The notes: generated by a model not told the origin, from the sequence alone. A stretch of 64,000 nucleotides of DNA from Candidatus Uhrbacteria bacterium (GCA_016188495.1 JACPHU010000002.1:111466-175465); one strand, 5' to 3'. Positions 4,538 through 58,845 are shown, counted from the stretch's first letter. Program-made: numbers and translations.

Positions 4538-5911
4538 TTACTCGAGACACAACACAGTATAGTCTTGTTTTCCCTCCGTGTTGATGAAGGTAACCTCGAC
4601 CTGTGCGGCAACGACCCTGAAGTCAATGACCTTTTTAACAGAGGTCGGCATCAGGGGCGCCATGATTTTTTCGCCATTGACGTAGACCGCTTCGGTCCCG
4701 TCGGGCTCTCTCTTGGCATAGACGGCTTTGGTCCCCACGGGAAGAAAACGGATACTCATACCAATAGAGTGTCCGTTTTCGTCGTACGCAGGTACATACG
4801 CATCGCGCATCTGCGGATCCAATACGGTGTCACCCTCAATCAGGATGAACTCGTATGAACTCTTCATGACCAGCGCGATCGGAGCTTTTGCTCCCATACT
4901 CACCTGGAGCACGTCGTTCAGCGGGGGGCCCATAAGTTCTCCGCCCCAGGACAGGCGATTTCCCCACTCACCCGCAATGGTCAACAACGGTTTTCTCCCC
5001 ACCTCGCCGTTGAACTGGCGAGCGTGGGAGGTTCCTGTAAATCTCCGGAACCCTTTTTCAGCGTCCCAGATGAGGGTATGGTCGTACCATTTGCCGACCC
5101 TGTTGTTTCCGCTATGGATGCGGAACATGATGAACGATCCGAACTGCTGAAATTCGGTAACAGTTCCTCGAACATACTCGAGATTCTTCTCATATGCCCG
5201 ATAGAGATCTGTTAAATCGTGATGTTCACCCCCGATACTGATTCCCTCCACACGGTTCTCATCTTCCGACACATTCAGCGTGATGGCTTCTCCGCTTCGC
5301 GCCAGCGCGTACGGCTTGTGTGCGAAGGGGCCCTGAAGAATGTTTCCATTCTCGAGCACCCAACAGACGATGTTCCACGACACTGTCCTGAGAGCCAGTA
5401 TCGTTCGACCCCTCAAGTGTTCGAAAGAAGAAGATGCATCACGATCACGATCCATATAATGGATCTCGTCTACTCTACCTAGGGACAGGGCTGAGGGTCC
5501 ATAACACAAGATGGAGTCATTCTCCGTGGTCGTACCAACGATGAGGATGTGGCCTGCGCCATAGGCGGCATTCCACCTATTTACACCCTTGACCACTCGC
5601 ACTGAGGCGAAGGTCCTGAGGGTTGATCCGTACACGTAATCCCAGACTTCCCGGTCATCCTTCTGGGCACGTCGAGCGATATAGCTGAGGTGGTCTGTCG
5701 AGATGAGCGTGATTTCCTGATACACGGGTCCGATACTCGCTGTTCCGTTTCGATAAATGAGGATTGATTCGCCACCCGTCCTTTTGAGAAGGAGGATGGA
5801 ATTCCCCTCGTATCCCCGGATAATGCTTTCGCAATCGCAGAATTCGACTCCACGGATCAAAAGCTTACCACCCATAACCGTGATGTCGCCACCGTGCATT
5901 GACTGCAGCAT
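4538..5911 (-). CDS. Hypothetical 457-aa protein, no signal peptide, in a visibly GC-rich island
   Basis: Long uninterrupted ORF. Composition is clearly different from neighbours. No motif recognised. Confidence 0.5.
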   Translation of the reverse strand: MLQSMHGGDITVMGGKLLIRGVEFCDCESIIRGYEGNSILLLKRTGGESILIYRNGTASIGPVYQEITLISTDHLSYIARRAQKDDREVWDYVYGSTLRTFASVRVVKGVNRWNAAYGAGHILIVGTTTENDSILCYGPSALSLGRVDEIHYMDRDRDASSSFEHLRGRTILALRTVSWNIVCWVLENGNILQGPFAHKPYALARSGEAITLNVSEDENRVEGISIGGEHHDLTDLYRAYEKNLEYVRGTVTEFQQFGSFIMFRIHSGNNRVGKWYDHTLIWDAEKGFRRFTGTSHARQFNGEVGRKPLLTIAGEWGNRLSWGGELMGPPLNDVLQVSMGAKAPIALVMKSSYEFILIEGDTVLDPQMRDAYVPAYDENGHSIGMSIRFLPVGTKAVYAKREPDGTEAVYVNGEKIMAPLMPTSVKKVIDFRVVAAQVEVTFINTEGKQDYTVLCLE

Positions 5912-6492
5912 GCTTTACTCCCTATTTTTGGTTGAATTGCATGAAGTAAGAAGACGTTCTGTCCTTCAGGCAACCACCTTTTATACACGAAAATTCATTT
6001 TTTGTCAACCAATCCGAACAGACCGTTGAAAAACTCGAATATCATGCCAAATTTTATTCCCTGAACTGTTCGTCGTGAGCTAGTCGAACGATCGAAGGGG
6101 CAAAATTTGGCTAAATCATCTGCGGCCTTCGACGGATTCGACAAGCTCACCGTAGACAGGCTCAGGCAATATGAGGAGTATTTCAACGGTCTCCTGTCTT
6201 TAAAAAAATAGAGACAAGGACGATATTTGGTAGCGAATACGACAGGGGCTGCTTGGCGTGTACCTGTGTTTTATCTTGAAAATGTTTAAGGAGAAATTCT
6301 TAGATTTCTAAATCTCTTGTTTTATCGTTGGTCAGATATCCAATCTTTTTTTGTCTTTCTTTATTCTATTCTTTTGTTGATCGTGACAAAAACCGTAGTA
6401 GATATGATTTCTTATGGAAAAGAACACGGCTTTTTTTTATTTGCTGCAAAACAAGCTGTTTGAAAGACAGCGACGGAGAGTTTTATGTTAAA

Positions 6493-6915
6493 ATGGCTGT
6501 AATGTTTTATTTTTTTTACCTCTTTCTTTTTTACAGTTTCGTTGGATGGCTGATTGATTCAGGTTATCGTTCTTTTTTAGATCGTCGATGGGTTCGAGGG
6601 GGATTTTCTGTTTTGCCATTTGCGCCAAGCTATGGGCTAGGAGCCGTTTTCTTGTTTTCTCTGGGGCCATTGGTGGCACCTCTACCGTTAGCTATGCAAT
6701 GGATGTTGTTAGGTTTTTTCTTTGCTGCTTATGAATACACGTGTGGACATTTGGGTGTTCTGTTAAACAAACGCCGTCTTTGGGATTACTCCGGCGGATT
6801 TTTAAACATCCACGGACATACGGATCTGTTGCATGCGATCTATTGGGCCACGCTTTCATTAGGGGTTTTTCATTGGTTCCACCCTTGGCTGCTTGAAATA
6901 TTCTTTAAAACATAA
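6493..6915 (+). CDS. Polytopic membrane protein resembling the 'putative ABC-transporter type IV' (PF06541-like) family; start uncertain (ORF open from 6328)
   Basis: Motif 'FLFYSFVGWLIDSGYRSFLDRRWVRGGFSVLPFAPSYGLGAV' resembles the YSFxGW...NRGFxxGPxxPxYGxGA signature. Upstream 6328-6490 encodes a degenerate partial duplicate of the N-terminus. Confidence 0.5.
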   Translation: MAVMFYFFYLFLFYSFVGWLIDSGYRSFLDRRWVRGGFSVLPFAPSYGLGAVFLFSLGPLVAPLPLAMQWMLLGFFFAAYEYTCGHLGVLLNKRRLWDYSGGFLNIHGHTDLLHAIYWATLSLGVFHWFHPWLLEIFFKT

Positions 6916-6989
6916 GTTTTAGGGAAACTTCTTGTTTTTTCTGTGTTTGTTTGATACATTTTTCTTGTCTTTAACCAAGGAGGCTCCCA

Positions 6990-7190
6990 ATGGGGAATGA
7001 AGATCCCAAGAATACGTCTTCGGATGAACCACTGTTTTCTTCTCAAACAACAAAGGAACAGAAGAAGGAGGATGGTCATTCACCACATAATTCCCAGCAG
7101 GAACGTCGAAAGTTTCTTCCACCGTTAAGACGGCGGGAATCAAGGTTCTGGCAGACAGAAGGATTTTTTGAAGAGGAAGAAAAAAAGTAA
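6990..7190 (+). CDS. Small charged hypothetical protein (66 aa)
   Basis: Strong SD 'AAGGAGG' 7 nt upstream of ATG. A hairpin terminator follows. The protein is low-complexity and K/E/R-rich. Confidence 0.3.
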   Translation: MGNEDPKNTSSDEPLFSSQTTKEQKKEDGHSPHNSQQERRKFLPPLRRRESRFWQTEGFFEEEEKK

Positions 7191-7273
7191 TATCTCTGAT
7201 CCGGAGCTTTTCTCATTGAAGCATCCGGATTTTTTATTGACTTTCAAGCTCGACCCTTTATGATAACGATCAC

Positions 7274-8521
7274 ATGAAAAAAACTTATGACCACATCGAG
7301 TTATTAGCACCTGCTGGATCTTACGAAGCCTTGCAGGCGGCCATCCATGCAGGATGCGATGCGATTTATTTTGGATTGGGAGGGTTCAACATGCGTGCCA
7401 ATACATCCCAAGCATTTACGCTTGAGGACTTGAAACAGATCGCGCATATTTGCCATGAGGCTCATGTCCGATGTTATCTTGCTCTTAACACGCTGATTTA
7501 TGATGGACAGATTGAGGAAATGAAAAAGGTGATTGATGCTGTAAAAGAAAACGATGTCGATGCGATCATCACTTTTGATACCTCTGCCATTTCGTATGCA
7601 CGAGAGTGCGGCGTGGAAGTTCATCTTTCCACCCAGCATTCCGTTTCCAACATCGAGGCCGTGAAGTTTTTTTCCACGGTTGCTGATCGGATTGTCTTGG
7701 CGCGCGAGCTCACACTAGAACAGATTAAGCAGATTACCCATGAGATTGAGCAGCAGAAGGTATGCGGACCTTCCGGGAGACTCATGGAAATCGAGATTTT
7801 TATCCATGGAGCCATGTGCGTGGCCGTGAGCGGACGCTGTGGCATGAGTTTGTATATGTTCGGGACATCCGCGAATTGTGGTGAGTGCAGCCAGCCCTGC
7901 CGCCGCGCGTTTACAGTGACAGACAAGTCCACGGGCAAGCAGCTTGATATCGAGAACGAGTATGTCATGTCTACAGAAGATTTGTGTACGATCGGTATGC
8001 TGGATGAGATTTTAGACTCCGGCGCTGTCTCGTTGAAGATCGAAGGACGAGGCCGTGCACCCGAATATGTGGACGAGGTTGTAAGATGTTATAGAGAAGC
8101 GATTGACGCCATCCGGGAAGGAACATACACAAAGGAGAAGATTGCCCAGTGGAATACACGACTGAGCTCTGTCTTTAATAGAGGACTCAGCGAGGGATTT
8201 TACCGCGGGGAAGCGTTTAAGCATTGGAGCGGTGAAGCCAATTCTCGCGCCACACAAAAAAGAATTTACGTGGGAATGGTCACGCACTATTACCCCAAAC
8301 AATCCATCGCAGAAATTTCTGTACAGGCGGATGATCTGACCGACGGGCAAGAATGCCTTATTACCGGCACAACCACGGGTGTGTTGCGCTGTAAGGCAGA
8401 GAAGATGATGATAGACGAACAAACAGTTTCAAACGCCAAGCAAGGCGATTGTGTGACGCTCGTTGTTCCAGGAAGAGTGAGGGCAAAAGATAAGTTATAT
8501 AAATTGGTTCCTACAAAATAA
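7274..8521 (+). CDS. Peptidase U32 family protein (collagenase-like; YegQ/TrhP-type)
   Basis: N-terminal 'ELLAPAGSYEALQAAIHAGCDAIYFG' matches the U32 family. A Cys-rich segment 'CGECSQPC' is present. Confidence 0.85.
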   Translation: MKKTYDHIELLAPAGSYEALQAAIHAGCDAIYFGLGGFNMRANTSQAFTLEDLKQIAHICHEAHVRCYLALNTLIYDGQIEEMKKVIDAVKENDVDAIITFDTSAISYARECGVEVHLSTQHSVSNIEAVKFFSTVADRIVLARELTLEQIKQITHEIEQQKVCGPSGRLMEIEIFIHGAMCVAVSGRCGMSLYMFGTSANCGECSQPCRRAFTVTDKSTGKQLDIENEYVMSTEDLCTIGMLDEILDSGAVSLKIEGRGRAPEYVDEVVRCYREAIDAIREGTYTKEKIAQWNTRLSSVFNRGLSEGFYRGEAFKHWSGEANSRATQKRIYVGMVTHYYPKQSIAEISVQADDLTDGQECLITGTTTGVLRCKAEKMMIDEQTVSNAKQGDCVTLVVPGRVRAKDKLYKLVPTK

Positions 8522-8523
8522 AA

Positions 8524-8552
8524 AATCACCGCCTCAACAGCGGTGATTTTTT
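8524..8552. terminator. Bidirectional hairpin terminator between the U32 gene (+) and membrane protein gene (-)
   Basis: ATCACCGC-ctcaaca-GCGGTGAT flanked by an A-run and a T-run. Confidence 0.7.
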
Positions 8553-8565
8553 AAAAGAATTGTTT

Positions 8566-10692: not shown

Positions 10693-10726
10693 AAAAAAGC
10701 ATCGAGTGATTTCACTATTTTAACAT

Positions 10727-14359: not shown

Positions 14360-14722
14360 ATGAAAGGATTTTTTGCTCAAAAAAATTTGATAGAACCATT
14401 AGTTCGAACAGGGTTTTTGACCTCTCTTCTTTTTTATATTCTTTTTTGGTTTACTGATTTTTTGATTCCAGGCTTTGTTTCCCGTTATTTTTCTGTTCAC
14501 CTTTTTCTCCTTACAGCATTGGTTTGCGGTCTCTTATGGTCTCATGTCATTGACACCTATAGACAGCACCCGCAATGGCGGCGTTTTATTGTTTTTTCTT
14601 TGGGGTTTATGTTTGCTCTGTTAACATGGAAGTTCACTTCCGGATTAGGATTTGAACGTTTTTTTCTGGTTATGGTAGTCTTTTTTACTCCAACTCTACT
14701 TTCTTTTTTTCTCAATGAATAA
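14360..14722 (+). CDS. Small 4-TM membrane protein
   Basis: Hydrophobic 120-aa ORF tightly packed between neighbours. Confidence 0.45.
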   Translation: MKGFFAQKNLIEPLVRTGFLTSLLFYILFWFTDFLIPGFVSRYFSVHLFLLTALVCGLLWSHVIDTYRQHPQWRRFIVFSLGFMFALLTWKFTSGLGFERFFLVMVVFFTPTLLSFFLNE

Positions 14723-15772: not shown

Positions 15773-15816
15773 CTTCAACAAGTTCAGATTGACCCTGAAT
15801 TTATTGAAGGGTCACT
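15773..15816 (+). repeat. About 45-bp imperfect direct repeat R1 (CTTCAACAAGTTCAG...TTATTGAAGGGTCAC)
   Basis: 15/15 identical start and about 80% identity overall with R2 at 17625-17676. Together they bracket a 1.85 kb segment. Confidence 0.6.
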
Positions 15817-15948: not shown

Positions 15949-16560
15949 TCAGTGAAAGATCATTGCACAACTGATCCCGGTACTCACGAGAAACATTAGC
16001 GCATGGGCAATGGCCCATTCACTGGGGTTCCAGCTACCTGTATTTTCCGGGGTTACTATTTGATATTCTCGTTCCCCAAAGAATCCTGGCCCTTTCTTGG
16101 TGAGTACCTTTCGTGGAATACAGAGCCTTTTATAAGACCAGAAGAGAATCAGGGAAGTCAGAAAAAAGAATGGGATTCCGACTACTGCACCGAGTAAATC
16201 CTTGGTCAGACCTACAGCATCTTCGCCCATGATTTTCCAGGCGATCATGAGCATGGTGAAGTGTCCGACTTCCGTGTTTCCAAATTTGGTCACTTCACCA
16301 TTGAGAGCGCTGAGCGCTCCGGAGACTCCTTCGCCGATTTCCTTTCCGATGCCGGCATACTTGCCGACCTGCTCCAGGTTGGTGAGTGTTTCTCCGACCT
16401 TGATCTGCGCGATCTGACCTTGGGTCAACTGACTGGCCGGAACCACGTAGGTTTGGGGCGGTTCCGGTGCCTGCTGTTGTCCCAAAGCGGTGGCAGACGC
16501 GAAGGCGAGCATCATCAACACAGCGACGATCATTGAACGGACTCGGGATCTGATCTGCAT
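15949..16560 (-). CDS. Hypothetical secreted/membrane protein (GC-rich island)
   Basis: N-terminal signal-like 'MIVAVLMMLAFASATALG'. A hairpin terminator lies at 15895-15923. Higher GC than flanks. Confidence 0.5.
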   Translation of the reverse strand: MQIRSRVRSMIVAVLMMLAFASATALGQQQAPEPPQTYVVPASQLTQGQIAQIKVGETLTNLEQVGKYAGIGKEIGEGVSGALSALNGEVTKFGNTEVGHFTMLMIAWKIMGEDAVGLTKDLLGAVVGIPFFFLTSLILFWSYKRLCIPRKVLTKKGPGFFGEREYQIVTPENTGSWNPSEWAIAHALMFLVSTGISCAMIFH

Positions 16561-16657: not shown

Positions 16658-17575
16658 ATGAAAATTCTTATTTTTGGTAAAGGATACATGGGTGAACGCT
16701 GTGCAGGAGTATGGGCAGATGAGGCTGTACTTTCCGACGTTCGTGTAACGTCTGTTGAAGACGCGTTAGCCGAAATTCAGCGTCATCAGCCAGACGTCGT
16801 TTTCAATGCGGCTGGAGTAAAAGGCAAACCCAATGTGGATTGGTGTGAAGACCATCCTCTTGAGACGATTTTGGGAAATACACTGATGCCACTGATGCTC
16901 GCGCATGCCTGCCAACAGGCCGGGGTGTATTTGCTGCACATGGGGTCCGGATGCATTTTTTACGGAGACTCCCATCACGAAGATAAGGCCTGGAAAGAAC
17001 ATGACTTTGGAAATCCGACACCTGTGTATTCGCGCAGCAAGTGGGCGGCGGATTTGGTCCTTACAACTCTGCCGAACGTCGGGGTCGCGCGCATTCGCAT
17101 GCCGATTGACTGGATTCCGTCCCCTGGAAATTTGATCGATAAACTGGCTGGATTCGATAAAGTGATTGACGTAGAGAATTCCGTCACCATCGTTGATGAT
17201 ATGGTCGAGGTGTTTTATCAGCTTCTGGAAAAACGTGCTCCTGGCATTTTCCACGTGACAAACCCTGGAACGATGCGTCATCGAGATTTGATTCAGTTAT
17301 ACGAGGAACTCGTTGATCCGACTCATACGAATGAATGGATTTCAAACGACGAACTCGTCGCTCATGGTCTTGCGACAAGAGGACGATCAAACAATACGTT
17401 AGCCTCCGAAAATTTAACAAAGTTTGGCATCACCATGAGGCCTATTGAAGAAGCTCTGAGGGAAACATTGGAAAAATACGCTGCAGCCAAGAAAGAAGAA
17501 GAGCACGGCTGCGAAAACGGTGACAATTGTTGCGGCGGCGGATGCTGCGGTATGGATGGAGGAGGATGCTGTTAG
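16658..17575 (+). CDS. RmlD-like NAD(P)-dependent sugar-nucleotide reductase/epimerase with unusual Cys/Gly-rich C-terminal tail
   Basis: 'MKILIFGKGYMG' Rossmann motif. 'YSRSK' matches catalytic YxxxK. Tail is 'HGCENGDNCCGGGCCGMDGGGCC'. Confidence 0.65.
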   Translation: MKILIFGKGYMGERCAGVWADEAVLSDVRVTSVEDALAEIQRHQPDVVFNAAGVKGKPNVDWCEDHPLETILGNTLMPLMLAHACQQAGVYLLHMGSGCIFYGDSHHEDKAWKEHDFGNPTPVYSRSKWAADLVLTTLPNVGVARIRMPIDWIPSPGNLIDKLAGFDKVIDVENSVTIVDDMVEVFYQLLEKRAPGIFHVTNPGTMRHRDLIQLYEELVDPTHTNEWISNDELVAHGLATRGRSNNTLASENLTKFGITMRPIEEALRETLEKYAAAKKEEEHGCENGDNCCGGGCCGMDGGGCC

Positions 17576-17589: not shown

Positions 17590-17622
17590 ATATTCCCTGA
17601 GCGAGGAGTCATCGACGAGTCG
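17590..17622 (+). repeat. 33-nt exact repeat, copy 1 (ATATTCCCTGAGCGAGGAGTCATCGACGAGTCG) just after the stop of the RmlD-like gene
   Basis: Identical 33-mer at 57987-58019. Both copies are preceded by CTCCT. A third, partial copy (19/20 nt) lies on the minus strand at about 6157-6180. Confidence 0.8.
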
Positions 17623-17624: not shown

Positions 17625-17676
17625 CTTCAACAAGTTCAGGGTGATCATGAGTTTATCGAATGGTCGAAGGGTGCAG
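17625..17676 (+). repeat. About 50-bp imperfect direct repeat R2 (CTTCAACAAGTTCAG...TTATCGAATGGTCGAAGGGTGCA)
   Basis: See R1. R2 directly follows the 33-nt repeat copy 1. Confidence 0.6.
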
Positions 17677-38602: not shown

Positions 38603-39277
38603 TCAGACTCCCAGGTTTGTTCGCAGATCGTTCACAGTCCTCTTGATAAGTCCGATTCCCTTGCTTGCCAGCAGAGCTGCTTTTGTCATGGCAGTCTCAG
38701 GGTGGACTTCATATTTGACCGGCGGTTCATGACCGTGCCAATCCTTTAGATGCTGTGAGCTTTCGAGAATACGGGGATCATCGAGCACAACAGCGATGGG
38801 ACGGCACATCACTCCTGCGTTCTCGAACATTGCTTCCGAGACCTGAATGACCCGACCCCGCCAAATGCCTTTGAAGGATCCGGCAGGGAACAGGCGCAGG
38901 ATTTCCCATGTGGGCAGATTCTGATTAAGACACAAGGTCGGATCTGTGTCGAAGCTTCCGATCTCGATCAGACAGACGTCACCCACATGGAAATTTCCGT
39001 GAGTTGTGACACCCTGCATCCGATACAACGGTCGAACCTCATACTCAAACGGAGGCTCTTTGTGGGACAATTTCCTTACGCCTTCGTTTTTATGCCCGTC
39101 GATACGGTCATCGGTGAAGAACGCCCGGATGGGCTGCGGTGACAGACGGGCGTCACCCATCTCGCTCACTTCGCCCCGATACCATGTGTCACCGCCGAAG
39201 TCATCGTACGTGGGGCCACTGAGCACATCCACATTCCTGCGAATGATTCGGATCTCACACATACCTCCCACAGACAT
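38603..39277 (-). CDS. Hypothetical protein, possibly MOSC-like beta-barrel (GC-rich island); start uncertain
   Basis: 'THGNFHVGDVCLIEIGSFDTDPTLC' loosely resembles the MOSC GENL..GD..PC motif. The listed ORF extends to 39439, overlapping the murE start. Confidence 0.3.
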   Translation of the reverse strand: MSVGGMCEIRIIRRNVDVLSGPTYDDFGGDTWYRGEVSEMGDARLSPQPIRAFFTDDRIDGHKNEGVRKLSHKEPPFEYEVRPLYRMQGVTTHGNFHVGDVCLIEIGSFDTDPTLCLNQNLPTWEILRLFPAGSFKGIWRGRVIQVSEAMFENAGVMCRPIAVVLDDPRILESSQHLKDWHGHEPPVKYEVHPETAMTKAALLASKGIGLIKRTVNDLRTNLGV

Positions 39278-39398
39278 CTTGGAAATATTTGTCCGTCCGA
39301 GGAATCGCGCTTTTGCCACTTTTATTCTCCTTTGTTGGTGGTTTAAGTGGAGGATTAGAATATACAAAATAAGCCAAAATGTCAATGGTTGTGATAAA

Positions 39399-41259: not shown

Positions 41260-41704
41260 GTCTTCATTTATTCAACGAATGGTTCGATGGCGATTCTTGA
41301 TCGTACTGAATATTTTTGTCATTGTTTTTCTGGGAATTTCTTTTGGCCGGGAGATTATTCGTAATCATTCTATCGGGTCAGAAATTGCCCGGCTGCAAGA
41401 ACAGGCTGATTCGCTTGCGGCTAAAAATATAGAAATTTCTGAGTTAAAGACAGCTATTCAAACAGAATCTTATATTGAACGTGAAGCACGTTTAAAACTT
41501 GGAATGAAAAAACCTGGAGAAACCGTCTACGTCATCCAAGAACAAACCCAAGATCAATCTCAGACAGCTACAACAGATGATCCAAATGATCCATTAGGAT
41601 TGGTTATTCAAGATTCGGAGGATGCTGAGGCAGTTGCGAATCCAACCAAGTGGTGGTATTACTTCTTTGATAAACAATCCTATAATACGTTTAGGGATCT
41701 CTAA
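41246..41704 (+). CDS. ftsB: Septum formation initiator (FtsB/DivIC-like) cell division protein
   Basis: TM + coiled coil + 'YIEREARLKLGMKKPGETVYVI' signature. Confidence 0.65.
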   Translation: MPIPKSSFIQRMVRWRFLIVLNIFVIVFLGISFGREIIRNHSIGSEIARLQEQADSLAAKNIEISELKTAIQTESYIEREARLKLGMKKPGETVYVIQEQTQDQSQTATTDDPNDPLGLVIQDSEDAEAVANPTKWWYYFFDKQSYNTFRDL

Positions 41705-41852
41705 AAATGGCGTCTTTTCGTTTCATGGGCGCCCGCCGACCCCACTCTCCCTATGGGGAATAGGGTTCGCGGGGCTCGACCCGCCCGAACGAACGTTCGA
41801 CGGTCGGGCGGGCAGCCCATTCAACGAAAATCCATCCATTTTTAGAGATCCT
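41693..41852. repeat. Palindromic repeat element, copy D (divergent right end), between ftsB-like and PPIase genes
   Basis: Outer IR 'agggatctctaaaaatgg' / 'ccatttttagagatcc(t)t'. Core shares 'tttcatgggcgcccgcc' and '...gttcgacggtcgggcgggcagcccattcaa' with copies A and E. Confidence 0.7.
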
Positions 41853-42963: not shown

Positions 42964-43105
42964 GCTGTGAATGATGAAACTCGATGAGATTGTCTTGAAT
43001 GGGCTGCCCGCCCGACCGTCGAACGACTGAACAGGATTGATCGTCGTTCAGTCGGGCGGGCGGGCGCCCGAAAACCTCAAGATCGCGAGTTTCATCATTC
43101 ACAGC
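42964..43105. repeat. Palindromic repeat element, copy E (inverted orientation), ending 4 nt before tRNA-Thr
   Basis: Outer IR 'gctgtgaatgatgaaactcg' / 'cgagtttcatcattcacagc'. Core is the reverse-complement arrangement of copies A/D ('atgagattgtcttgaatgggctg...gggcgggcgcccgaaaacctcaagatcg'). Confidence 0.75.
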
Positions 43106-43340: not shown

Positions 43341-44279
43341 TTATCTTTCTATAACAGCCATTTCTTTTATTTCTTTCATTGCTTGTCGATAGCGTTGTTG
43401 TTCTTGTTCCATTCGTTGTTTTTGAGTTTGAATTTTTTCCTCGATTTCTGGCGATAGTTGAATTTCTGGATTTCCAACCAAACGTCGTAAGAGTTTACGC
43501 CATGTTGGATTTTCAATAGATTCCAATTCTTTTATCTGTTTATAGCGAGGTTTAATAAAAGCTCCTTTGTGGTCACTAATGGATGGTGGTGACGGATATT
43601 TTCGTTCGGCATCAGTCTCGACACCAAGGGGTTTGAAGATAAGATCATCACGAGTATCTTCCTTTTTTCTAAAAGACCCAAGAATTGCAGCTTTGTCAAA
43701 AGAAGCAGTTGAGAACGCGTGTGTAAGTAAATTTTGTGCAAGGTCTAATGTTTGACCTGAAAAAATAAAACTATCAACGATTAAAATGCGTGGCGGAAGT
43801 GATTTGAATGTTTCTTGTAATTCGGTAATGAGCAATTTTAATTTTTTGTTTGCCTCTTCCTGCCGAAAAAGCATGTATTCTTCTTGTCTATCATATCCAT
43901 ATTTTTTTCTGGATTCTTTTTTTATTTCTTTCATCGTTTTTTTATCATAGTAATGATCGTAATAATATTGCATTTTGTCATATCCAGTGATGAGTTCTCT
44001 GCCTACTTTGATATATTTTATTTCTGGAAATTTTTTGTCTGGAAAACGATGTTGCCATCGCGCATGAAGCAAATGCGACCAGATTCGAGCGCCTTGATCA
44101 AGAAAAATAAGGGCGTCATAGTTGGTTTGAGAAAGTTGATCCAAAAAATGATCTGCAGCCTCAAGCATCAACTCGCGGTCTTTTGTGTCAAAAATTTCAA
44201 ATTTTGATTTTTCAACAGATTCCATTTTTTTCAATGCCGTTGTTTCTGGAATAAATTTAGATCCACCTTCTTTCATCAT
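43341..44279 (-). CDS. Phosphoribosyltransferase-like protein (type I PRT PRPP-binding motif), AT-rich
   Basis: 'ILIVDSFIFSGQTL' resembles the PRPP-binding loop. Confidence 0.45.
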   Translation of the reverse strand: MMKEGGSKFIPETTALKKMESVEKSKFEIFDTKDRELMLEAADHFLDQLSQTNYDALIFLDQGARIWSHLLHARWQHRFPDKKFPEIKYIKVGRELITGYDKMQYYYDHYYDKKTMKEIKKESRKKYGYDRQEEYMLFRQEEANKKLKLLITELQETFKSLPPRILIVDSFIFSGQTLDLAQNLLTHAFSTASFDKAAILGSFRKKEDTRDDLIFKPLGVETDAERKYPSPPSISDHKGAFIKPRYKQIKELESIENPTWRKLLRRLVGNPEIQLSPEIEEKIQTQKQRMEQEQQRYRQAMKEIKEMAVIER

Positions 44280-46795: not shown

Positions 46796-47170
46796 ATGAC
46801 TTTAAAAAAACGAATTGAAATATCTGATTTTACAGCTATTTTTTCTCTCTCGCTTATTTTAGTTTGGATTTCTCATTTTTTATTTTTTACATTGACAGGG
46901 TCAAATGATATTAAAGATATTTTTGCCACAGGAGGTTTTCCCATAAGGTCTTTTTCTTATCCAGGTCCAGCGATGGGTAATGATCATGTTCCTCCCCAGA
47001 TGTGGGGAGGATTTGCTCTGAATATTCTTTTTTGGTTGTTTGTTTGTTCTTTTCTCTTTCAATTTTTTCCAGAAAAATATAAGTCAGAAAAAATAAGACG
47101 CATTATTTTTTGTAGCGCTATCATTCTTACTCTTTTTGGAAAGTTTTATTTTTTGTTGAAATTTGATTAA
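46796..47170 (+). CDS. Small hydrophobic hypothetical protein
   Basis: ORF with 3-4 TM segments; AT-rich. Confidence 0.4.
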   Translation: MTLKKRIEISDFTAIFSLSLILVWISHFLFFTLTGSNDIKDIFATGGFPIRSFSYPGPAMGNDHVPPQMWGGFALNILFWLFVCSFLFQFFPEKYKSEKIRRIIFCSAIILTLFGKFYFLLKFD

Positions 47171-47183: not shown

Positions 47184-47207
47184 GTTCGAATCCCTGTCTA
47201 TACACCA
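47184..47207 (+). repeat. Orphan tRNA 3'-end fragment (GTTCGAATCCCTGTC...ACCA) in inverted orientation relative to tRNA-Gln
   Basis: 15/15 nt identical to the T-arm/acceptor 3' strand of the adjacent tRNA-Gln, followed by 'tatacacca'. There is no upstream sequence able to complete a cloverleaf. Confidence 0.55.
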
Positions 47208-47243
47208 AAGAAAAAACAACCGTCAATGACGATTGTTTTTTCT

Positions 47244-47317
47244 TGGTTCCCGGACAGGGATTCGAACCCCGATACCCAGGACCAAAACCTGGTGTCCTGC
47301 CTTTAGACGATCCGGGA
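47244..47317 (-). tRNA. tRNA-Gln (anticodon TTG), CCA encoded
   Basis: Manual fold: acceptor TCCCGGA/TCCGGGA, anticodon stem CCAGG/CCTGG with loop TTTTGGT, T-stem CGGGG/CCCTG (one G-U). Confidence 0.8.
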
Positions 47318-49320: not shown

Positions 49321-50076
49321 ATGACTCTGGCAGAAACCATTTCACAAAACATGAAGGTTGCCATGAAAGCCAAAGACAACGCAACGCTTTCCACGTTGCG
49401 TTTGTTGCTTTCTGCGATAAAAAATAAGCAGATCGATGTTGGCCATGTCTTATCTGACTCAGAGATTCAAGACGTCGTGAAAACTCAGGTAAAACAACTC
49501 AAGGATGCTGTTGACTCTTTTACTCAAGGAGGTCGTGAGGATATGGCTCAGGCTTCTGCAGCTGAAATTCAGGTGCTTGAACAATTTCTTCCTGCACAAA
49601 TGAGCGACGAAGAACTGACTCAAATTCTCAAGAGAGTGGTTGAATCCAGCGGAGCGCAAAGTAAAGCAGATATAGGAAAAGTGATGGGGTCTGCGATGCA
49701 GGCGGTTGCAGGACGTGCAGACGGATCGCGTGTAAAGACGATTGTCCAATCTCTTTTGCCTGTTCTTATCCTGGTTGTGTTTGGAGCGATGTCTGCCAAT
49801 CATGAGACGGTCGCTGCGATTCCTTTGTTGGACACATTAAGTAACGGGACTCAATATACCGAATTACTTTTACGATTATTTCGTGTCCTTGTCCTTTGGT
49901 TGGGAATTCCCGCTATTACCATGATTTTAACCGGAGGATTTGAATATACCACCGCTTCTTATCGGGATGAAGTTCATCATCATTCCTTGAGCAAATTGAC
50001 CTTCGGTGTTTTTGCTACATTGATTATCGCTGCTTTATTCGCCTTTTGTACCATTATTCTTCAACAAATTCAGTAA
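49321..50076 (+). CDS. yqeY: GatB/YqeY-domain protein with unusual C-terminal two-TM extension
   Basis: N-terminal about 150 aa match YqeY. C-terminal about 100 aa is hydrophobic. Confidence 0.65.
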   Translation: MTLAETISQNMKVAMKAKDNATLSTLRLLLSAIKNKQIDVGHVLSDSEIQDVVKTQVKQLKDAVDSFTQGGREDMAQASAAEIQVLEQFLPAQMSDEELTQILKRVVESSGAQSKADIGKVMGSAMQAVAGRADGSRVKTIVQSLLPVLILVVFGAMSANHETVAAIPLLDTLSNGTQYTELLLRLFRVLVLWLGIPAITMILTGGFEYTTASYRDEVHHHSLSKLTFGVFATLIIAALFAFCTIILQQIQ

Positions 50077-50077
50077 A

Positions 50078-50207
50078 GAGATCTCTCCAAAACTCGCGAC
50101 CTTCCCTTTCACGGGCGCCCGCCCTCCACACTCTCCCTATTGTGAATAGGGTTCGTATGGCTCAACAGCCCGTTCAAGGCAATCTCATCGAGTTTTGGAG
50201 AGATCTC
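50078..50207. repeat. Palindromic repeat element, copy A, immediately after the yqeY stop
   Basis: Outer IR 'gagatctctccaaaactcg' / 'cgagttttggagagatctc'. Core 'cgaccttccctttcacgggcgcccgcc...cccgttcaaggcaatctcat' contains the GGGCGCCC palindrome. Confidence 0.75.
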
Positions 50208-54266: not shown

Positions 54267-54614
54267 TCATTTTGTAAAACTATTTATCAGGCCGGATAAC
54301 AATCTCGAAACTTCTTCTAGATTTGTTTTCAAACCAGCTAGTTCTTTATTTTCGATTATTTTTTCATCACAAAGTAATTCCAATAAAGAGGCGCATTCAA
54401 AAACTGATCCACGAGAAATGACGTAAAAATTCTTACGGTCTTGTTTAGATAATTTACCTGTACCTTCCGCGATATTTATGACCATACTGACAGAGGCTCG
54501 ATAAAGTTGGTCTCGCAAAAAAGCATTGGTCTTTTTATCAATCAATATTTTCTGAATTTTTGCGTTTACTTCTTTGGCTTTTTGGTAAGCTACAAGTTTT
54601 TCAAAGTCGAACAT
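54267..54614 (-). CDS. Four-helix-bundle protein (TIGR02436-like, the family often found in rRNA intervening sequences)
   Basis: 'FEKLVAYQKAKEV...INIAEGTGK...SRGSVFECASLLEL' resembles that family. Confidence 0.6.
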   Translation of the reverse strand: MFDFEKLVAYQKAKEVNAKIQKILIDKKTNAFLRDQLYRASVSMVINIAEGTGKLSKQDRKNFYVISRGSVFECASLLELLCDEKIIENKELAGLKTNLEEVSRLLSGLINSFTK

Positions 54615-54761: not shown

Positions 54762-54765
54762 ATAT

Positions 54766-54892
54766 GAAGTTCTTCTAAAACTTGCGATCTTGCCTTTCAC
54801 GGGGCCCCATTGGCTTGTCGCCGTATGGCGAATACGGCTCTGTCGCCAATTTCCCCGTTCAAGGCAATCTCATCAAGTTTTAGAAGAACTTC
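54766..54892. repeat. Palindromic repeat element, copy B, starting 5 nt from the 5' end of tRNA-Pro
   Basis: Outer IR 'gaagttcttctaaaacttg' / 'caagttttagaagaacttc'. Core 'cgatcttgcctttcacggggcccc...ccccgttcaaggcaatctcat' contains the GGGGCCCC palindrome. Confidence 0.75.
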
Positions 54893-54978: not shown

Positions 54979-57900
54979 ATGAGACGTGAGGGTGAAGCTT
55001 TACATGATCGTGAATCAGCTAAAAAACAAGAAATTTCTTTTTCTGATATTCAGGATGATTTAACTTCTGTATTGGTCAGTCAACGCGAGTTTGTTTCTAG
55101 ACAGGAGTCAGATCGTCTTCCCGAACTTATTTTAGATGAATCTGCGTTTGATCAGTTATCCCAATCTCAACGTACCGCGGTTGAACAAAATGTACGATTA
55201 CTTTCATTGTTATCTGGACATCGGGGAAGCATGCTTCGACGTCAGTTAAAGTCTCTTCAAAATCCATCCGTGGCTAAACTCGCTCAATTATTGGAGTGGT
55301 CCAATAGCGTTGTAAAAAGTGGAGTTTTTTCTTTTGATGAAACAATAACCACACCGCCTTCTGATTTTTTACAAAAGAAAAAGGATCCACGTGAGCTGTA
55401 TGAATATGTACTAGCCGCTTCCGCGATGGGTGAGGAAGAGTCAGTTAATCCAGAAGCGCTTTCTGAAACCATCCGTCGAAGTTTGCATTTGGCGCCTGGA
55501 AAAGGTGATGCGGATATCAATAAGGTGTTGTTTGGCGATCGGTCTAAAGAGATAAAAGTTGTTTTAGACACCTTAGGATTTATTCCTCGCCAGCTTTATA
55601 AATATCCCTCTTTCAGAATACTTGAGCCTGCACAGGTTATTGCTGCTGAGCGCCAACTTCGAGAAATAGAGCAGTCTCATCCTTCATTGCGTCATCAAGC
55701 CCGCGAGGAACGTACCCAGGTCACTCAAGCATTATTTACCAGTGGCATTGCAAAGAAATTACGAACAGGCGGAACAGATACCCGATACGTGACCTTGGAC
55801 TCAAACGGTGTCCGCATTCATTTTGACGGACGTGTTTCTGGAAAAGGGAAATCCCTTTTAGACCGTCCATTTGTGGCGCATATTCCCTACGGTCTTTTAT
55901 CGGATGAATGTGTTTCAGAATTAGAAAAGCATTGGCTTCAAACAGAAGCTGAAGGATTAGAATTACGGCTTCGTCGAGCTCAAGAGAATTATGACATCCC
56001 AGAGAGCCGCGCCAAAAAAGAGCATCAAGTTTCTGCTTTTGCTGACACCTTGGGTTTAACCAAAGAAACTCCGGAATTGACGTATCAAGCCTTTAAAAAA
56101 GAACTTGTTGAATTTCCTGATCGTTTTGCAAAACGCGTTTTAGACAGCGGTGAGATCATTCCAGATCAGCTGCTTGAACGATTGTTTGCAGATATGCAGG
56201 AGAAGGGGATCTTTGTTTCCATGCGGTTTGCGGAGGCAGTCACGGCTTTCATTTCCACAGAAGCTCTTTCGAATAAACGATTGTTTCTTCAGCACGGTAT
56301 TAAAGATAACCAAAAACAAACGTATCAAGCTCGCGCCCGAGTCATGAGCGACCCTCGTTATTACAATGCCCTAAAAATTGTCCGTTCGGTTCTTGTACAG
56401 CACCCTTACTCCGATCCTGAAAAACAGTTTTTGGTTTTTCGCGGACAATATAAAAAATCCAACGAAGGCCGTCAGCATACCTTTTTAGAAGTTGTTCATG
56501 AGGGTCAGATGGCAAAGGTGTTAGTCGATGAACAAAAGGAGTTTAAATCAGATCAGTTAGAACGCACACCTGTGTTTTCTCGAGAAGTATATGAAGAGTT
56601 GGAAGAAAGTTTAGTGGCTTTTGATTATTTTCTTGGACGGATTGATCAGATGCGACGGCTTGTCCGTTATAAAAACAAACACTGGGAAACAAAATTTCGT
56701 GAAGACATGAAAGAGGTGGAGATTTTTGTGCTCACCAATGTCAGTCATCGATATAAAGACCTTCGTGTTCTTATTGATCGATTGCAAACCCAAGAGATGC
56801 CTGAAGAAACTCTTTTGTCTTTTTTCTACGTTCTTCAACAGACACAAGAAGAGTATCGAACGTTTCTCTACCAAGGCGCTACGCCGGAACTCATCGGTTT
56901 CCGAGATTTTTTTCGTCCAAGTGTTCGAGTGCAGGAAATTGAGTATGGCCAAGAATTTTTATCTTTAGCAACACGGATGTGTCCTGAGTGGGGGGTTGAT
57001 AAAGAATTGAGTACAGAATCTCAACCTATTCGTGTGATTGCCTTGAATCATCTTATTCAACATCCATCAGAAACAATCCCTGTCGATGTTGAAGAGGCTG
57101 TGTTAGATAAATTACGTGTAAATCGTAATCGTCCTTTGATCAACGTGGTAGGTGGTTGTAAGTTTGTCGCTGGAATGGAGAATCCTGAAGACCATCCGCT
57201 TAATAAAATGAGTTTAGCTGTGCTAAACGTTGCTCACGAAGTAAAAGCCAATGTCGCTGTTCCTGGGACACAGTCTGGAATCGGAGTGTACTTTGGACAA
57301 CAAAATGTGAGATACCGACGAACCACAGATCATTTTCCGTTTAAAGAACGTGCACATCTCTTTTCTATTTCCACCGGTGGGAATACCGTTTATCCAGAGA
57401 ATCCTTGGATGGAAAAGACAGATCCATCCGAACGATATGCTGTGGCGCCAGTGGACACAGTTGTCACACCTATTACGGCTTTATGGGAAGCTAAAGGGAA
57501 GGAGCGTTTAAGAGGTTACGATCTTCATATTGTTTATATGGAGTCATTGTTTGCTCGTATTAGTAAAGAGCAGCCTCGTGTCCTGGTAGCGGGCAACGGT
57601 GGTATTTTTTCTATTTTGGAAATTAATGAGTCCATCAAGCATGGGTTTGATATTCTTCTGATCGAAGATTCTGGTCGTTTTGCAGAAGCAGCTTCAGCGG
57701 TTATGAGAGAAATCGACCACTTACCAGATCCAGAGGATCCAGGATTTGATGAACATGTGCGTTTATTGTTGCAGGCTACACTTCCAACGGATGTTATGAA
57801 AGAATTTTTTAAAAAGGATTTTGGAGAGACAACACCTCCTCAAGGAGATCTGAAAGAAAATTACGAGGTGTTTCGAGATCATTTTCGACGATTCGTTGTC

Positions 57901-57987
57901 TTAGCAAAGCAATTTCCTAACAAAGTTCATGTGACTCATCTGGATTCACTTGAAAGAGATATACGGACGTTTGTCACACCTCCTTAA
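54979..57987 (+). CDS. Large hypothetical protein (1002 aa) with C-terminal LOG/SLOG-like Rossmannoid domain
   Basis: C-terminal 'VVGGCKFVAG' and 'LVAGNGGIFSILEINESIKHG' resemble the two LOG-family glycine-rich motifs. N-terminal about 650 aa unassigned. Confidence 0.55.
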   Translation: MRREGEALHDRESAKKQEISFSDIQDDLTSVLVSQREFVSRQESDRLPELILDESAFDQLSQSQRTAVEQNVRLLSLLSGHRGSMLRRQLKSLQNPSVAKLAQLLEWSNSVVKSGVFSFDETITTPPSDFLQKKKDPRELYEYVLAASAMGEEESVNPEALSETIRRSLHLAPGKGDADINKVLFGDRSKEIKVVLDTLGFIPRQLYKYPSFRILEPAQVIAAERQLREIEQSHPSLRHQAREERTQVTQALFTSGIAKKLRTGGTDTRYVTLDSNGVRIHFDGRVSGKGKSLLDRPFVAHIPYGLLSDECVSELEKHWLQTEAEGLELRLRRAQENYDIPESRAKKEHQVSAFADTLGLTKETPELTYQAFKKELVEFPDRFAKRVLDSGEIIPDQLLERLFADMQEKGIFVSMRFAEAVTAFISTEALSNKRLFLQHGIKDNQKQTYQARARVMSDPRYYNALKIVRSVLVQHPYSDPEKQFLVFRGQYKKSNEGRQHTFLEVVHEGQMAKVLVDEQKEFKSDQLERTPVFSREVYEELEESLVAFDYFLGRIDQMRRLVRYKNKHWETKFREDMKEVEIFVLTNVSHRYKDLRVLIDRLQTQEMPEETLLSFFYVLQQTQEEYRTFLYQGATPELIGFRDFFRPSVRVQEIEYGQEFLSLATRMCPEWGVDKELSTESQPIRVIALNHLIQHPSETIPVDVEEAVLDKLRVNRNRPLINVVGGCKFVAGMENPEDHPLNKMSLAVLNVAHEVKANVAVPGTQSGIGVYFGQQNVRYRRTTDHFPFKERAHLFSISTGGNTVYPENPWMEKTDPSERYAVAPVDTVVTPITALWEAKGKERLRGYDLHIVYMESLFARISKEQPRVLVAGNGGIFSILEINESIKHGFDILLIEDSGRFAEAASAVMREIDHLPDPEDPGFDEHVRLLLQATLPTDVMKEFFKKDFGETTPPQGDLKENYEVFRDHFRRFVVLAKQFPNKVHVTHLDSLERDIRTFVTPP

Positions 57988-58019
57988 TATTCCCTGAGCG
58001 AGGAGTCATCGACGAGTCG
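57987..58019 (+). repeat. 33-nt exact repeat, copy 2, overlapping the stop codon of the 1002-aa gene
   Basis: Identical to 17590-17622; followed by a strong hairpin terminator. Confidence 0.8.
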
Positions 58020-58039
58020 AAGGGGCATTGAAATTAAAT

Positions 58040-58080
58040 AACCACCAGATCCCGAAGGAGTCTGGTGGTTTTCGTTTTTT
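58040..58080 (+). terminator. Strong rho-independent terminator after the 1002-aa gene
   Basis: CCACCAGA-tcccgaaggagt-CTGGTGG + TTTTCGTTTTTT. Confidence 0.75.
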
Positions 58081-58227
58081 GCCTCCCTATACCCCGGGTG
58101 GCGGACCACGTTACTCGCAAGCAACATGGTGAGGGGTGAGTTGATGAGCCGCAGCTCTTCAACTCTCGAAGTCCTTAACCGCAGTTTTGGACCTCGGCCC
58201 TCTCTCCACCCGTAGGTGAGGAGAAGG

Positions 58228-58845
58228 CTAGCTATTGATCAGATCGATTGACTTCTGGACGGCACTGGTCATGCTGTCGCAGATATACACGTTGGGGTAA
58301 TCCTTGACCAGATCGCTCAGATACGACCGCATCCGGTTGGCATCCTTGAGATCTCGACCCAGAACCTCCTGGTTCTCGATCACGGTTCCCATCGGAATAT
58401 TCTCGATGGAGAGAACGACCGTTCGCCCGTCGGCTCCATACTTGAGAGCTTCCATGATCGAAACGCCGGCGCGAGTCTGTCCGTCGATGACGAACAGGAG
58501 CACCTTTGCCTCATCCTTGGCCGCGGCTTCGATTGCCACCAGTTCCGGTGACCAGTCGTCGACCTGGGGGTTGTAGAAGCTCACTCCAGCTTCTTCCAGC
58601 GTCGGAATGGCATAATCGAACCGCCAGGTGGTCGGGTTGCACGAGCCACCGAGAAACACAGAAGCATTCGAACCAGTAGCATTCTTCATCTCGTTTCCAT
58701 CCTTAGCAGGACTTTTTGTGAATAAACCTACCGTTGTCTGTCCCGCAATATGACGCGGGTAGGCACTGCTGCGACTCATCGTTTTTGGAGCACATGCTCT
58801 TTGACGATGACGGATGAGAATATCAGATTTTATCATTTTTGTCAA
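58228..58845 (-). CDS. Nucleoside 2-deoxyribosyltransferase-like protein (GC-rich island)
   Basis: 'SVFLGGSCNPTTWR' and overall size/pattern resemble the Nuc_deoxyribosyltransferase-like family. Visibly GC-rich. Confidence 0.55.
   Translation of the reverse strand: MTKMIKSDILIRHRQRACAPKTMSRSSAYPRHIAGQTTVGLFTKSPAKDGNEMKNATGSNASVFLGGSCNPTTWRFDYAIPTLEEAGVSFYNPQVDDWSPELVAIEAAAKDEAKVLLFVIDGQTRAGVSIMEALKYGADGRTVVLSIENIPMGTVIENQEVLGRDLKDANRMRSYLSDLVKDYPNVYICDSMTSAVQKSIDLINS

Follow-up and report, generated by a model that had tools for sequence, protein, structure and literature searches.

Do single genes that are visibly richer in GC than their surroundings mark the arrival of foreign DNA? The question is raised by a 64,000-nt stretch, here called the window, of a metagenome-assembled genome (MAG; locus tags HYV70_) of a Candidatus Uhrbacteria bacterium (GCA_016188495.1 JACPHU010000002.1:111466-175465), where six GC-rich islands, each essentially one gene, lie scattered along a moderately GC-poor backbone. 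The initial annotation took them for repeated gene-sized horizontal insertions, possibly linked to GC-rich repeat elements. We find that for five of the six islands the GC excess goes with the gene families over the long term and does not signal a recent arrival of foreign DNA. We tentatively favour, with somewhat less than even confidence, the reading that the islands are accessory genes resident in an Uhrbacteria clade, have been inherited vertically and form a distinct class, rich in GC at third codon positions (GC3), that would be kept so by selection on synonymous sites. The coding sequences (CDSs) of the six islands, together with two genes from a GC-rich terminal block of the window, are as follows.

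Island 1, 4538-5911, minus strand: 457-aa soluble orphan, predicted to be beta-rich; GC 0.528, GC3 0.618.
Island 2, 15949-16560, minus strand: 203-aa protein MBI2473090.1; GC 0.516, GC3 0.578.
Island 3, 25672-26106, plus strand: 144-aa soluble orphan MBI2473103.1, in the slot between the DUF7282 and LOG genes; GC 0.497, GC3 0.531.
Island 4, 37973-38530, plus strand: 185-aa membrane protein directly downstream of the class II ribonucleotide reductase (RNR) gene; GC 0.491, GC3 0.581.
Island 5, 38603-39319, minus strand: 238-aa soluble orphan HYV70_00970; GC ~0.51-0.54, GC3 0.586.
Island 6, 58228-58689, minus strand: 153-aa PF15891 nucleoside 2-deoxyribosyltransferase-like protein; GC 0.552, GC3 0.695.
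Terminal block, first two genes, 59843-62777, plus strand: SsuA/NMT1-like lipoprotein (GC3 0.626) and VWA protein (GC3 0.535).

The window as a whole has a GC content of 44.2%, with 43.5% over positions 1-59800 and 53.5% in the terminal 4.2 kb. The genome had been described as low in GC; outside the terminal block it does lie below the islands, but at 43.5% it is only moderately low. The backbone is a typical gene set of the candidate phyla radiation (CPR), including RecQ, Pif1, ABC-F, class II RNR, Mur ligase, FtsEX, DivIC, HflX and L28, and its median GC3 per open reading frame (ORF) is 0.384, with a standard deviation of 0.053 based on the median absolute deviation (MAD-sd). All six islands are strong GC3 outliers from it (0.53-0.70; robust z 2.8-5.9, binomial z 3.7-10.3). 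Per-ORF GC3, the drop in GC at the flanks and z scores far above sampling noise thus bear out the observation of six GC-richer segments of about one CDS each, and dispel the possibility, raised at the outset, that GC would prove uniform once computed. The excess falls mainly on third, synonymous positions and affects nearly all codon families: islands compared with backbone have GC1 of 0.551 vs 0.537 (+0.014), GC2 of 0.413 vs 0.368 (+0.045) and GC3 of 0.601 vs 0.393 (+0.21), and GC2 and the GARP amino acids are slightly up.

This excess ends abruptly. GC within 150 nt of the island CDS ends is only 0.35-0.47 (0.35-0.40 at seven of the 12 ends), the sole exception to the sharp drop being a 150-nt GC-rich stretch 3' of island 6. 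Island edges stop at CDS ends with no decay into the flanks, a tract-like extent being absent save in the ABC-F gene (see below), and the composition of the RNR, Mur ligase and LOG neighbours, 70-100 bp from islands, is unaffected. Backbone GC3 shows no decay with distance from islands (rho -0.05, permutation p 0.38), and intergenic GC, at 0.395, is about the same as backbone GC3 (0.38-0.39). GC3-rich stretches beyond the six islands are the 3' two-thirds of ABC-F (~2500-3794, 0.52-0.68) and a U32 peptidase gene (7274-8521, 0.517). The junctions are reproduced by independent assemblies, namely Logan contigs L001 and L002 (SRR12113419 assembly) and an NCBI 190-kb contig.

The strongest evidence on the origin of the islands comes from their presence in relatives. 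The nearest of these is a sister lineage of the GW2011_GWF2_39_13 type (~40% GC), collinear with the window and sharing 80-95% backbone amino-acid identity; window and sister are 3 GC points apart genome-wide. Islands 2-6 and the terminal block occupy the same syntenic positions in the sister, and the sister orthologs of islands 2-5 are GC-elevated too relative to the sister backbone GC3 of 0.30. These orthologs, each at the same site, are 60% identical for island 2 (GC3 0.607; nonsynonymous divergence, dN, 0.29, with synonymous sites saturated), 56% for island 3 (GC3 0.45-0.47; ratio of dN to synonymous divergence, dN/dS, 0.29), 78% for island 4 (GC3 0.43; dN/dS 0.076) and 76% for island 5 (GC3 0.51). 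The syntenic ortholog of island 6 has 87% amino-acid identity and a GC3 of 0.693, and the terminal-block genes are syntenic at 82% nucleotide identity, the sister block running for at least 9 kb at GC 0.47-0.58. With dN/dS between window and sister at 0.076-0.29, islands 3-6 are under purifying selection. The proportion of synonymous differences (pS) is 0.62-0.76 for islands 2-5, near saturation. dS is 0.6-1.7 in the backbone, with most genes there at ~0.9-1.2, and is lower in island 6 (0.32, its neighbour having 0.91) and in the terminal-block genes (0.73-0.74).

Conservation reaches well beyond the sister. A genome scan anchored on RNR yielded 80 loci, of which the best 64 (L019-L082) were analysed as Uhrbacteria-type relatives; those tabulated have a locus GC of 35-63%, and they were seen as 23-kb loci around the one anchor gene plus a few other contigs, with mechanical ORF calls. 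In Uhrbacteria with as little as 70-80% RNR identity, the same slots again hold islands 3, 4 and 5, profile searches finding homologs of island 3 in five genomes, of island 4 in two, of island 5 in five and of the terminal block in four. The island 3 homologs, retrieved with jackhmmer in L022, L024, L028, L034 and L080, have GC3 of 0.86, 0.75, 0.93, 0.84 and 0.31 in hosts with backbone GC3 of 0.435, 0.40, 0.53, 0.49 and 0.24, respectively. Island 4 homologs again lie downstream of RNR in L028 (GC3 0.789 vs backbone 0.527) and L034 (0.667 vs 0.488). Hidden Markov model (HMM) homologs of island 5 adjoin RNR in L028, L034, L043, L045 and L050, and their GC3 excess over the host backbone (dGC3) is positive in all five; for the terminal-block orthologs in L050, L055, L024 and L045, dGC3 is +0.16 to +0.46. 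Island 6 is elevated elsewhere as well, with GC3 of 0.703 in the Parcubacteria locus L102 (neighbours 0.20-0.385), 0.486 in L103 and 0.453 in L015. Islands 3, 4, 5 and 6 and the terminal-block genes thus have homologs in far more distant Uhrbacteria or Parcubacteria.

Islands 2-6 are therefore older than the split from the sister, and islands 3, 4, 5 and 6 and the terminal block are older than much deeper splits. Synteny of 2-6 in the sister and the deeper homologs of 3-6 contradict repeated insertions into this genome, and conservation in relatives, which the initial annotation itself had named as grounds for giving up its reading, was found for five of the six, though as patchy accessory genes and not as a universal core. 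A search for foreign donors failed: homologs of islands 1 and 5 were found only in close relatives and those of islands 3 and 4 only in Uhrbacteria loci, and the broad family of island 6 offered no closer match from a foreign lineage. The horizontal-insertion reading keeps part of its ground, since the genes are accessory and lineage-restricted, several slots are variable, and the 4-kb segment holding island 1 is absent from the sister.

The GC3 excess of the islands does not behave like a donor signature either. All 24 tabulated homologs (from 10 other Uhrbacteria genomes, sister included) lie above the conserved backbone GC3 of their own host, by a mean of +0.236 (range +0.057 to +0.46; Wilcoxon p = 1.2e-7), and 110 other ORFs in the same loci, taken as a control, have a median dGC3 of +0.008. 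A regression of island GC3 on the backbone GC3 of the host over 33 instances has a slope of 0.95 and an intercept of 0.25 (rho 0.71, p = 3e-6), at a mean logit offset of 1.05, and within families rho is 0.79-1.0 (islands 3, 4 and 5 and the two terminal-block genes). The excess is still positive in the GC-richest host (backbone GC3 0.69), and the pattern is seen in hosts with locus GC of ~35-57%. Among 41 families each present in at least four loci, the island 5 family ranks first by mean dGC3, and family identity has an effect of eta2 = 0.36. Island GC3 evolves in step with the host, staying ahead of it by a near-constant ~+0.25 (about 1 logit unit). An excess present in every homolog and tracking host GC3 with a slope of 0.95 is not a donor mark, and the terminal-block genes belong to the same compositional class as the islands. 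Genes that come and go are not uniformly GC-rich: ORF 59014-59598 (GC3 0.405) and a CmpB-like gene (0.367), both discussed below, are not raised, whereas island 1 and the U32 gene are.

What force could hold such an offset? From saturated synonymous sites and an intergenic GC equal to backbone GC3 we infer that the excess is, for most islands, no leftover donor signal and is actively maintained. A persistent force acting gene by gene would hold the synonymous sites of island transcripts GC-rich, and codon choice or mRNA GC content may tune the translation or stability of what would be monocistronic, conditionally used genes. Selection on these transcripts is the form we favour, with GC-biased gene conversion as its main rival; such selection agrees with the reduced dS seen in island 6 and the terminal-block genes. 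The force is placed on the synonymous sites of single genes because donor, neutral, ordinary translational and diffuse regional explanations are all disfavoured. Two facts make a GC-rich neutral equilibrium, with the backbone selected towards AT and the islands unmasked by relaxed selection, unlikely: intergenic GC (0.395) is the same as backbone GC3, and other fast-evolving genes are not GC-rich. Nor is there support for a general link of fast evolution with high GC3, other fast-evolving backbone genes (71-80% identity) having normal values, or for a minus-strand (head-on) position as the cause, as other minus-strand genes are not GC-rich. The sharp edges disfavour a diffuse regional process, as does the lack of distance decay, which also speaks against a spill-over of GC3 into neighbouring backbone genes.

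The borders of the islands look like those of ordinary genes. Promoter-like and terminator-like signals bracket islands 2-6 (among them a terminator at 15923-15900 for island 2, one at 26126-26149 for island 3 and a promoter-like site at 39385-39357 for island 5), and each of these islands appears from its signals to be a monocistronic unit among long co-directional backbone arrays. Because the islands are their own transcription units, terminators at their borders are normal gene ends and not insertion scars. The initial annotation had several islands bounded by hairpin terminators or repeats; terminator-like hairpins do occur at islands 2, 3, 4 and 5, but the larger GC-rich repeats adjoin no island. 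Neither mobility genes nor target duplications were seen at the islands, and window annotation and repeat scans revealed no integrase, tRNA or direct-repeat flank there. The larger repeats form a family resembling miniature inverted-repeat transposable elements (MITEs), with four full copies and the terminal inverted repeats AAAACTCGCGATCTT and AATCTCATCGAGTTTT.

MITE-like copy, 41698-41846: GC-rich; family members ~125-150 nt.
MITE-like copy, 42977-43105: inverted.
MITE-like copy, 50076-50199.
MITE-like copy, 54764-54884.
MITE-like copy, 24929-25040: partial.

These repeats lie at least 2-3 kb from islands, with none at an island border, and the proposed link between islands and GC-rich repeats falls with the placement of the copies at 41.7, 43.0, 50.1 and 54.8 kb. 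Two copies adjoin tRNA genes (Thr, Pro). A perfect 33-nt repeat occurs at 17590-17622 and 57987-58019, each time directly after a stop codon, and related short hairpin repeats of the form CCCTTC...GAAGGG stand at 6056-6103, 15773-15813 and 17625-17665, all intergenic and near islands 1, 2 and 6; the 33-nt and short hairpin repeats do not flank these islands as pairs. Logan contig L002 ends near the 6056 copy. At 47184-47215 (+), directly after the AT-rich ORF 46796-47170, is a fragment resembling a tRNA T-arm and 3' end (GTTCGAATCC...ACCA). Together with the 3' end of tRNA-Gln (47244-47317) it makes up an inverted repeat, and by its sequence it could be the remnant of an integration site. A scan of the whole window against Rfam by E value returned only four tRNAs and one chance miRNA match. 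Among the tRNAs of the window are tRNA-Thr CGU, Gly CCC and Pro GGG, whose codons end in G or C.

The left end of the window departs from this picture in two ways.

Variable segment, 4488-8565: island 1, the CmpB-like gene (6328-6915, GC3 0.367) and the U32 peptidase gene (7274-8521, GC3 0.517).
GC3-shifted ABC-F tract, 2500-3794, plus strand: starts mid-gene in a core gene; lineage-specific.

Of the six islands, only island 1 is missing from the syntenic slot of the sister. Between the sister's PsiS gene and 708-aa gene, tblastn and blastn (L008, L009) found no match to 4488-8565, which is replaced there by a cassette encoding a 92-aa secreted protein (GC3 0.516 vs backbone 0.30) and a DUF1653 protein; a palindromic terminator at 8519-8553 marks the right edge of the segment. 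Against 5.8e9 proteins the island 1 protein matched only itself, and against 1.84e9 representatives it gave three fragmentary matches at 54-77% identity. A homolog fragment from another sample, L104, is equally GC3-rich (0.617). It has no Pfam, NCBIfam, PHROG, PADLOC or PDB match, a scan of viral contigs found no relative, and its AlphaFold2 model (predicted local distance difference test score, pLDDT, 35.3) was too poor for a fold search.

In the ABC-F gene, GC3 is 0.32 at 2334-2513, 0.52-0.68 afterwards and 0.63-0.68 from ~2780, and raised GC3 continues past the gene through the PsiS gene (0.45-0.52) to island 1. In L105, L106 and the sister, ABC-F GC3 is 0.30-0.40 along the entire gene. Amino-acid identity is equal in the two halves (0.94-0.95 vs 0.935-0.94), nucleotide identity falls from 0.86 to 0.78, and pS against the sister is 0.80. 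Nowhere else does the GC excess disregard gene borders. Either synonymous GC shifted regionally in this lineage, or the tract was imported from a GC-rich cousin that is equally distant. GC-biased gene conversion is a better explanation for the tract than selection on transcripts. On the minus strand there is no strong terminator between island 1 and PsiS and ABC-F, and antisense read-through from island 1 across both genes is conceivable from the sequence.

Selection on island transcripts has to be weighed against four alternatives. GC-biased gene conversion would make the accessory genes recombination-prone, allele-exchanged loci in which biased heteroduplex repair fixes AT-to-GC changes locally; we consider it unlikely as a general account, though it deserves serious attention. 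It would explain an excess found chiefly at third positions and in codons that are not optimal, as in recombining bacterial genes (Lassalle 2015, PMC4450053), in fast-evolving islands that sit in variable slots, along with the mild rise in GC2 and GARP amino acids. The ABC-F tract also speaks for it, a mid-gene synonymous shift near the variable segment and without extra amino-acid divergence having the look of a DNA-level process. Average GC3 differences separating recombinant genes from non-recombinant ones reportedly look smaller than the +0.25 seen here. Apart from ABC-F, moreover, the edges are CDS ends, and neighbours at 70-100 bp (RNR, Mur ligase, LOG) are neither affected nor show decay, which is hard to square with conversion tracts. 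Several observations weigh against selection on transcripts in turn. The mid-gene start of the ABC-F tract cannot be explained by selection at the level of the gene. Translational selection in its usual form, that of highly expressed genes, is unlikely because GC3 is only 0.41 in both L28 and HU; in the sister, S12 and S7 have 0.33-0.34 vs a backbone of 0.30. Synonymous shuffling reveals only a weak trend towards more mRNA structure (z of +0.14 to -2.8 in islands, +0.12 to -1.6 in the backbone), and selection for a specific mRNA structure is not supported, as island z is only marginally below that of the backbone. Island 6 has a host-independent GC3 of ~0.70 in three genomes, and its family occurs also on phage-like contigs (a 453-kb contig and IMG/VR). 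For islands 1 and 2, comparison was limited to a single lineage or to fragments. Finally, the island families occur patchily in Uhrbacteria, in slots that vary, which makes some transfer within the class likely, especially for island 6; slots whose content varies across the class lie between RNR and a conserved 335-aa gene, between DUF7282 and LOG, and between PsiS and the 708-aa gene.

Such transfer could be taken further, to recurrent xenologous replacement, in which the families circulate among Uhrbacteria, other CPR bacteria and phages and re-enter the same slots from GC-richer donors. Patchy distribution, variable slots and the 35-63% GC range of Uhrbacteria would all suit it, as would the island 6 family, with its phage-like and IMG/VR contigs and host-independent GC3, and the rve integrase that follows island 5 in the sister. 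We nevertheless find it distinctly improbable, because island GC3 tracks the host with a slope of ~1 and is in excess even at a backbone of 0.69, with no return to a pool mean; identity ranks roughly follow RNR identity, island 6 retains the same partner of native GC across deep divergence, and islands 1 and 5 have no homologs outside the clade. The view of the initial annotation, recent independent gene-sized insertions into this genome, possibly mobilised by repeats, draws on atypical composition, on the five of six proteins that lack a family assignment, on the absence of island 1 and its segment from the sister, and on the perfect 33-nt repeat that adjoins the island 6 region and comes within ~1 kb of island 2. 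Five of the six islands are syntenic in the sister, however, and four have deeper homologs; mobility genes, target duplications and tRNA flanks are missing at the islands, the MITE-like repeats are away from their borders, and lineage-specific genes such as ORF 59014-59598 and the CmpB-like gene have ordinary GC3. The view is largely refuted for islands 2-6, and we give it very little credence as a whole. No more credible, to our minds, is ancient transfer with incomplete amelioration, or the survival of slowly decaying relics of a GC-rich ancestor, even though the next-nearest relatives by RNR after the sister have loci of 45-56% GC and the window differs from the sister by 3 GC points genome-wide: the synonymous sites of islands 2-5 are saturated (pS 0.62-0.76), so these genes are not slow-evolving, and the excess spans splits with RNR 70-80% identical and extends to GC-rich hosts (0.93 vs 0.53 in L028).

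Most island proteins are, by sequence analysis, predicted to be envelope-associated or of unassigned function. The statement that most could not be assigned holds up, five of the six (islands 1-5) having no Pfam or NCBIfam match at E <= 0.01; no island protein, nor the 1002-aa partner of island 6 described below, matched PADLOC, and PDB sequence searches with islands 1, 5 and 6 gave nothing useful. Hydropathy backs the earlier calls of a secreted protein for island 2 (a signal-peptide-like N-terminus and two to three hydrophobic helices) and a membrane protein for island 4 (hydrophobic segments). Island 2 matches PHROGs of unknown function weakly (E 1.8e-7). Island 5 had been placed at 38603-39277 and called MOSC-like: the island is real, but its true span is 38603-39319, with the Mur-ligase gene starting at ~39399, and the MOSC assignment was rejected, as Pfam and NCBIfam (E <= 0.01) and a PDB profile search (E <= 1) gave no match. 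Its protein carries an internal EPP(F/V)xYEV(R/H)P repeat and has six homologs among 5.8e9 proteins, all from close relatives; an AlphaFold2 model built on a six-sequence alignment (pLDDT 48.5) was too poor for a fold search. The sister has an rve integrase gene after island 5 (L003 14797-15951). The terminal-block genes follow island 5 after only ~1.5 kb in L050 (11364-16563) and after 20 kb of backbone in the window (39.4-59.8 kb). Across Uhrbacteria, the DNA downstream of RNR forms a variable slot prone to rearrangement.

Island 6 is the one island with an assigned family, and its surroundings hold three further features.

GC-rich non-coding element, 58078-58227, minus strand: 3' of island 6; sister counterpart L018 2398-2546.
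LSDAT/SLOG protein gene, 54979-57987, plus strand: 1002 aa, PF18171 at E 6e-8; convergent partner of island 6; GC3 0.32-0.33.
Insertion or deletion relative to the sister, 58846-59580: 735 bp; 194-aa acetyltransferase-like ORF 59014-59598, GC3 0.405.

The island 6 protein is assigned by profile match to PF15891 (Nuc_deoxyri_tr2; 66.2 bits against a cutoff of 30, E 3.9e-18, model positions 2-103 of 105); among solved structures it has no close one. Placed earlier at 58080-58845 as a deoxyribosyltransferase-like gene with a GC-rich non-coding tail, the island proves correct in both its family and its tail (58078-58227), but 58690-58845 is ordinary 5' flank with a GC of 0.44. Recent exchange of an island 6 cassette with the sister was considered, identity being 86-95% vs 80-87% in the flanks, and rejected, as the boundary is not sharp. 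One of the closest homologs of island 6 (61% identity) lies on L015 (ENA GROS21-1 scaffold_9, 453 kb), a contig dense in small ORFs without Pfam match that carries phosphoribosyl pyrophosphate (PRPP) synthetase, ADP-ribosylglycohydrolase and CYTH genes and, from this content, looks like a huge phage.

The tail of island 6 is 95% identical to its sister counterpart, with synonymous sites nearby diverged. Its minus strand is predicted to fold at -81.2 kcal/mol (z = -7.26) into a closing stem and three hairpins, one hairpin showing one compensatory and three G.U-compatible changes relative to the sister. It has no Rfam match at E <= 0.1 and, in all loci compared, is present only in the window and the sister; we consider it a candidate for a new structured RNA or 3' untranslated region (UTR) element.

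In L101 and L102, the island 6 homolog has as its convergent neighbour a 970-aa ortholog of the 1002-aa protein, 36% identical over 938 aa, the pair in L102, a distant Parcubacteria locus, lying at 5001-5444 and 5585-8497 (a PF15891 protein of ~150 aa and a SLOG protein of ~1000 aa). The SLOG partner is always at native GC3 (0.279 in L102). To judge from domain content, the convergent pair could be a nucleotide-signalling or defence module. PF15891 proteins are reportedly paired with SLOG-family proteins in nucleotide-centred conflict or signalling systems (Burroughs et al. 2015; compare Thoeris SLOG effectors, PMC11204291); the conserved convergence of a PF15891 gene with that of a large LSDAT/SLOG protein recalls these systems, but neither protein matches a PADLOC model. 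The pairing does not explain the composition.

Beyond island 6 the sister alignment skips from L018 3162 to 3191 across 58846-59580, which makes this the one clean indel close to an island; the ORF 59014-59598 there has a weak PHROG acetyltransferase match. Elsewhere in the window, four AT-rich outlier ORFs (43341-44279, 46796-47170, 54267-54614 and 14360-14722; GC3 0.21-0.29, robust z to -3.3) have no Pfam match; as candidates for foreign or decaying genes they are, by composition, more classical than the islands rich in GC. An RmlD-like sugar-nucleotide-binding protein (16658-17575) has an odd Cys/Gly-rich C-terminal tail (HGCENGDNCCGGGCCGMDGGGCC), and the GC3 of its gene is slightly up in both lineages (window 0.476, sister 0.438).

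How do the islands compare with known compositional anomalies? Genomic islands and islets of horizontal gene transfer (HGT) share their gene-sized deviations in GC and codon usage, orphan or accessory products and lineage-variable slots. Here, however, position is conserved in relatives, mobility signatures are missing, and the excess recurs in every homolog and tracks the host, the opposite of what an ameliorating donor signature would do; the resemblance is one of composition only, the presence/absence (islands 2-6), mobility and donor tests having come out negative. In recombining bacterial genes, GC-biased gene conversion has been held responsible for GC3 elevation (Lassalle et al. 2015, PMC4450053), and there too the excess is in third positions and not explained by the optimal codons of highly expressed genes; our islands differ in being bounded by single CDSs and heritable by gene family across a bacterial class. 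In 'group A' genomes (<36% GC), strain-specific genes exceed core and highly expressed genes in GC3, and above ~36% GC singletons are the lowest-GC3 class (Lopez et al. 2020, PMC7374057). Our pattern, in contrast, holds at host locus GC of ~35-57% and concerns only a subset of accessory genes, other fast-evolving or orphan genes having normal or very low GC3. By analogy only, the bimodal GC3 classes of grasses (PMC2895627) are likewise two compositional classes per genome with membership common to orthologs; those are eukaryotic and linked to meiotic recombination and 5'-3' gradients. In the literature on CPR bacteria (Patescibacteria) we found no prior description of a family-heritable, host-tracking, CDS-bounded GC3 excess of ~+0.25.

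It is routine to take atypical GC as a sign that genes were acquired horizontally not long ago, and CPR genomes are frequently mined on that basis; for five of the six islands here that reading is wrong, the GC excess belonging to gene families and moving with them through loci of ~35-57% GC. It is possible, if rather doubtful as yet, that Uhrbacteria, along with at least some other Parcubacteria, have a conserved second class of genes set apart by composition, small, monocistronic and mostly envelope-related or unassigned accessory genes, whose synonymous sites are ~1 logit unit richer in GC in almost every lineage examined, whatever the genomic GC. If so, the class implies a gene-specific force new for CPR bacteria, such as a layer of translational control based on codon choice, or locus-specific GC-biased repair. 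Were the pattern genome-wide, it would warn against composition-based HGT calls in these lineages. It would also make a clean natural test bed in which selection on synonymous sites in bacteria could be told apart from biased gene conversion, since the same orthologs occur in many GC backgrounds at a constant offset. And it would single out conserved, uncharacterised and probably surface-related genes, together with the pair of SLOG and deoxyribosyltransferase-like proteins, as a functionally distinct group in these episymbiotic bacteria.

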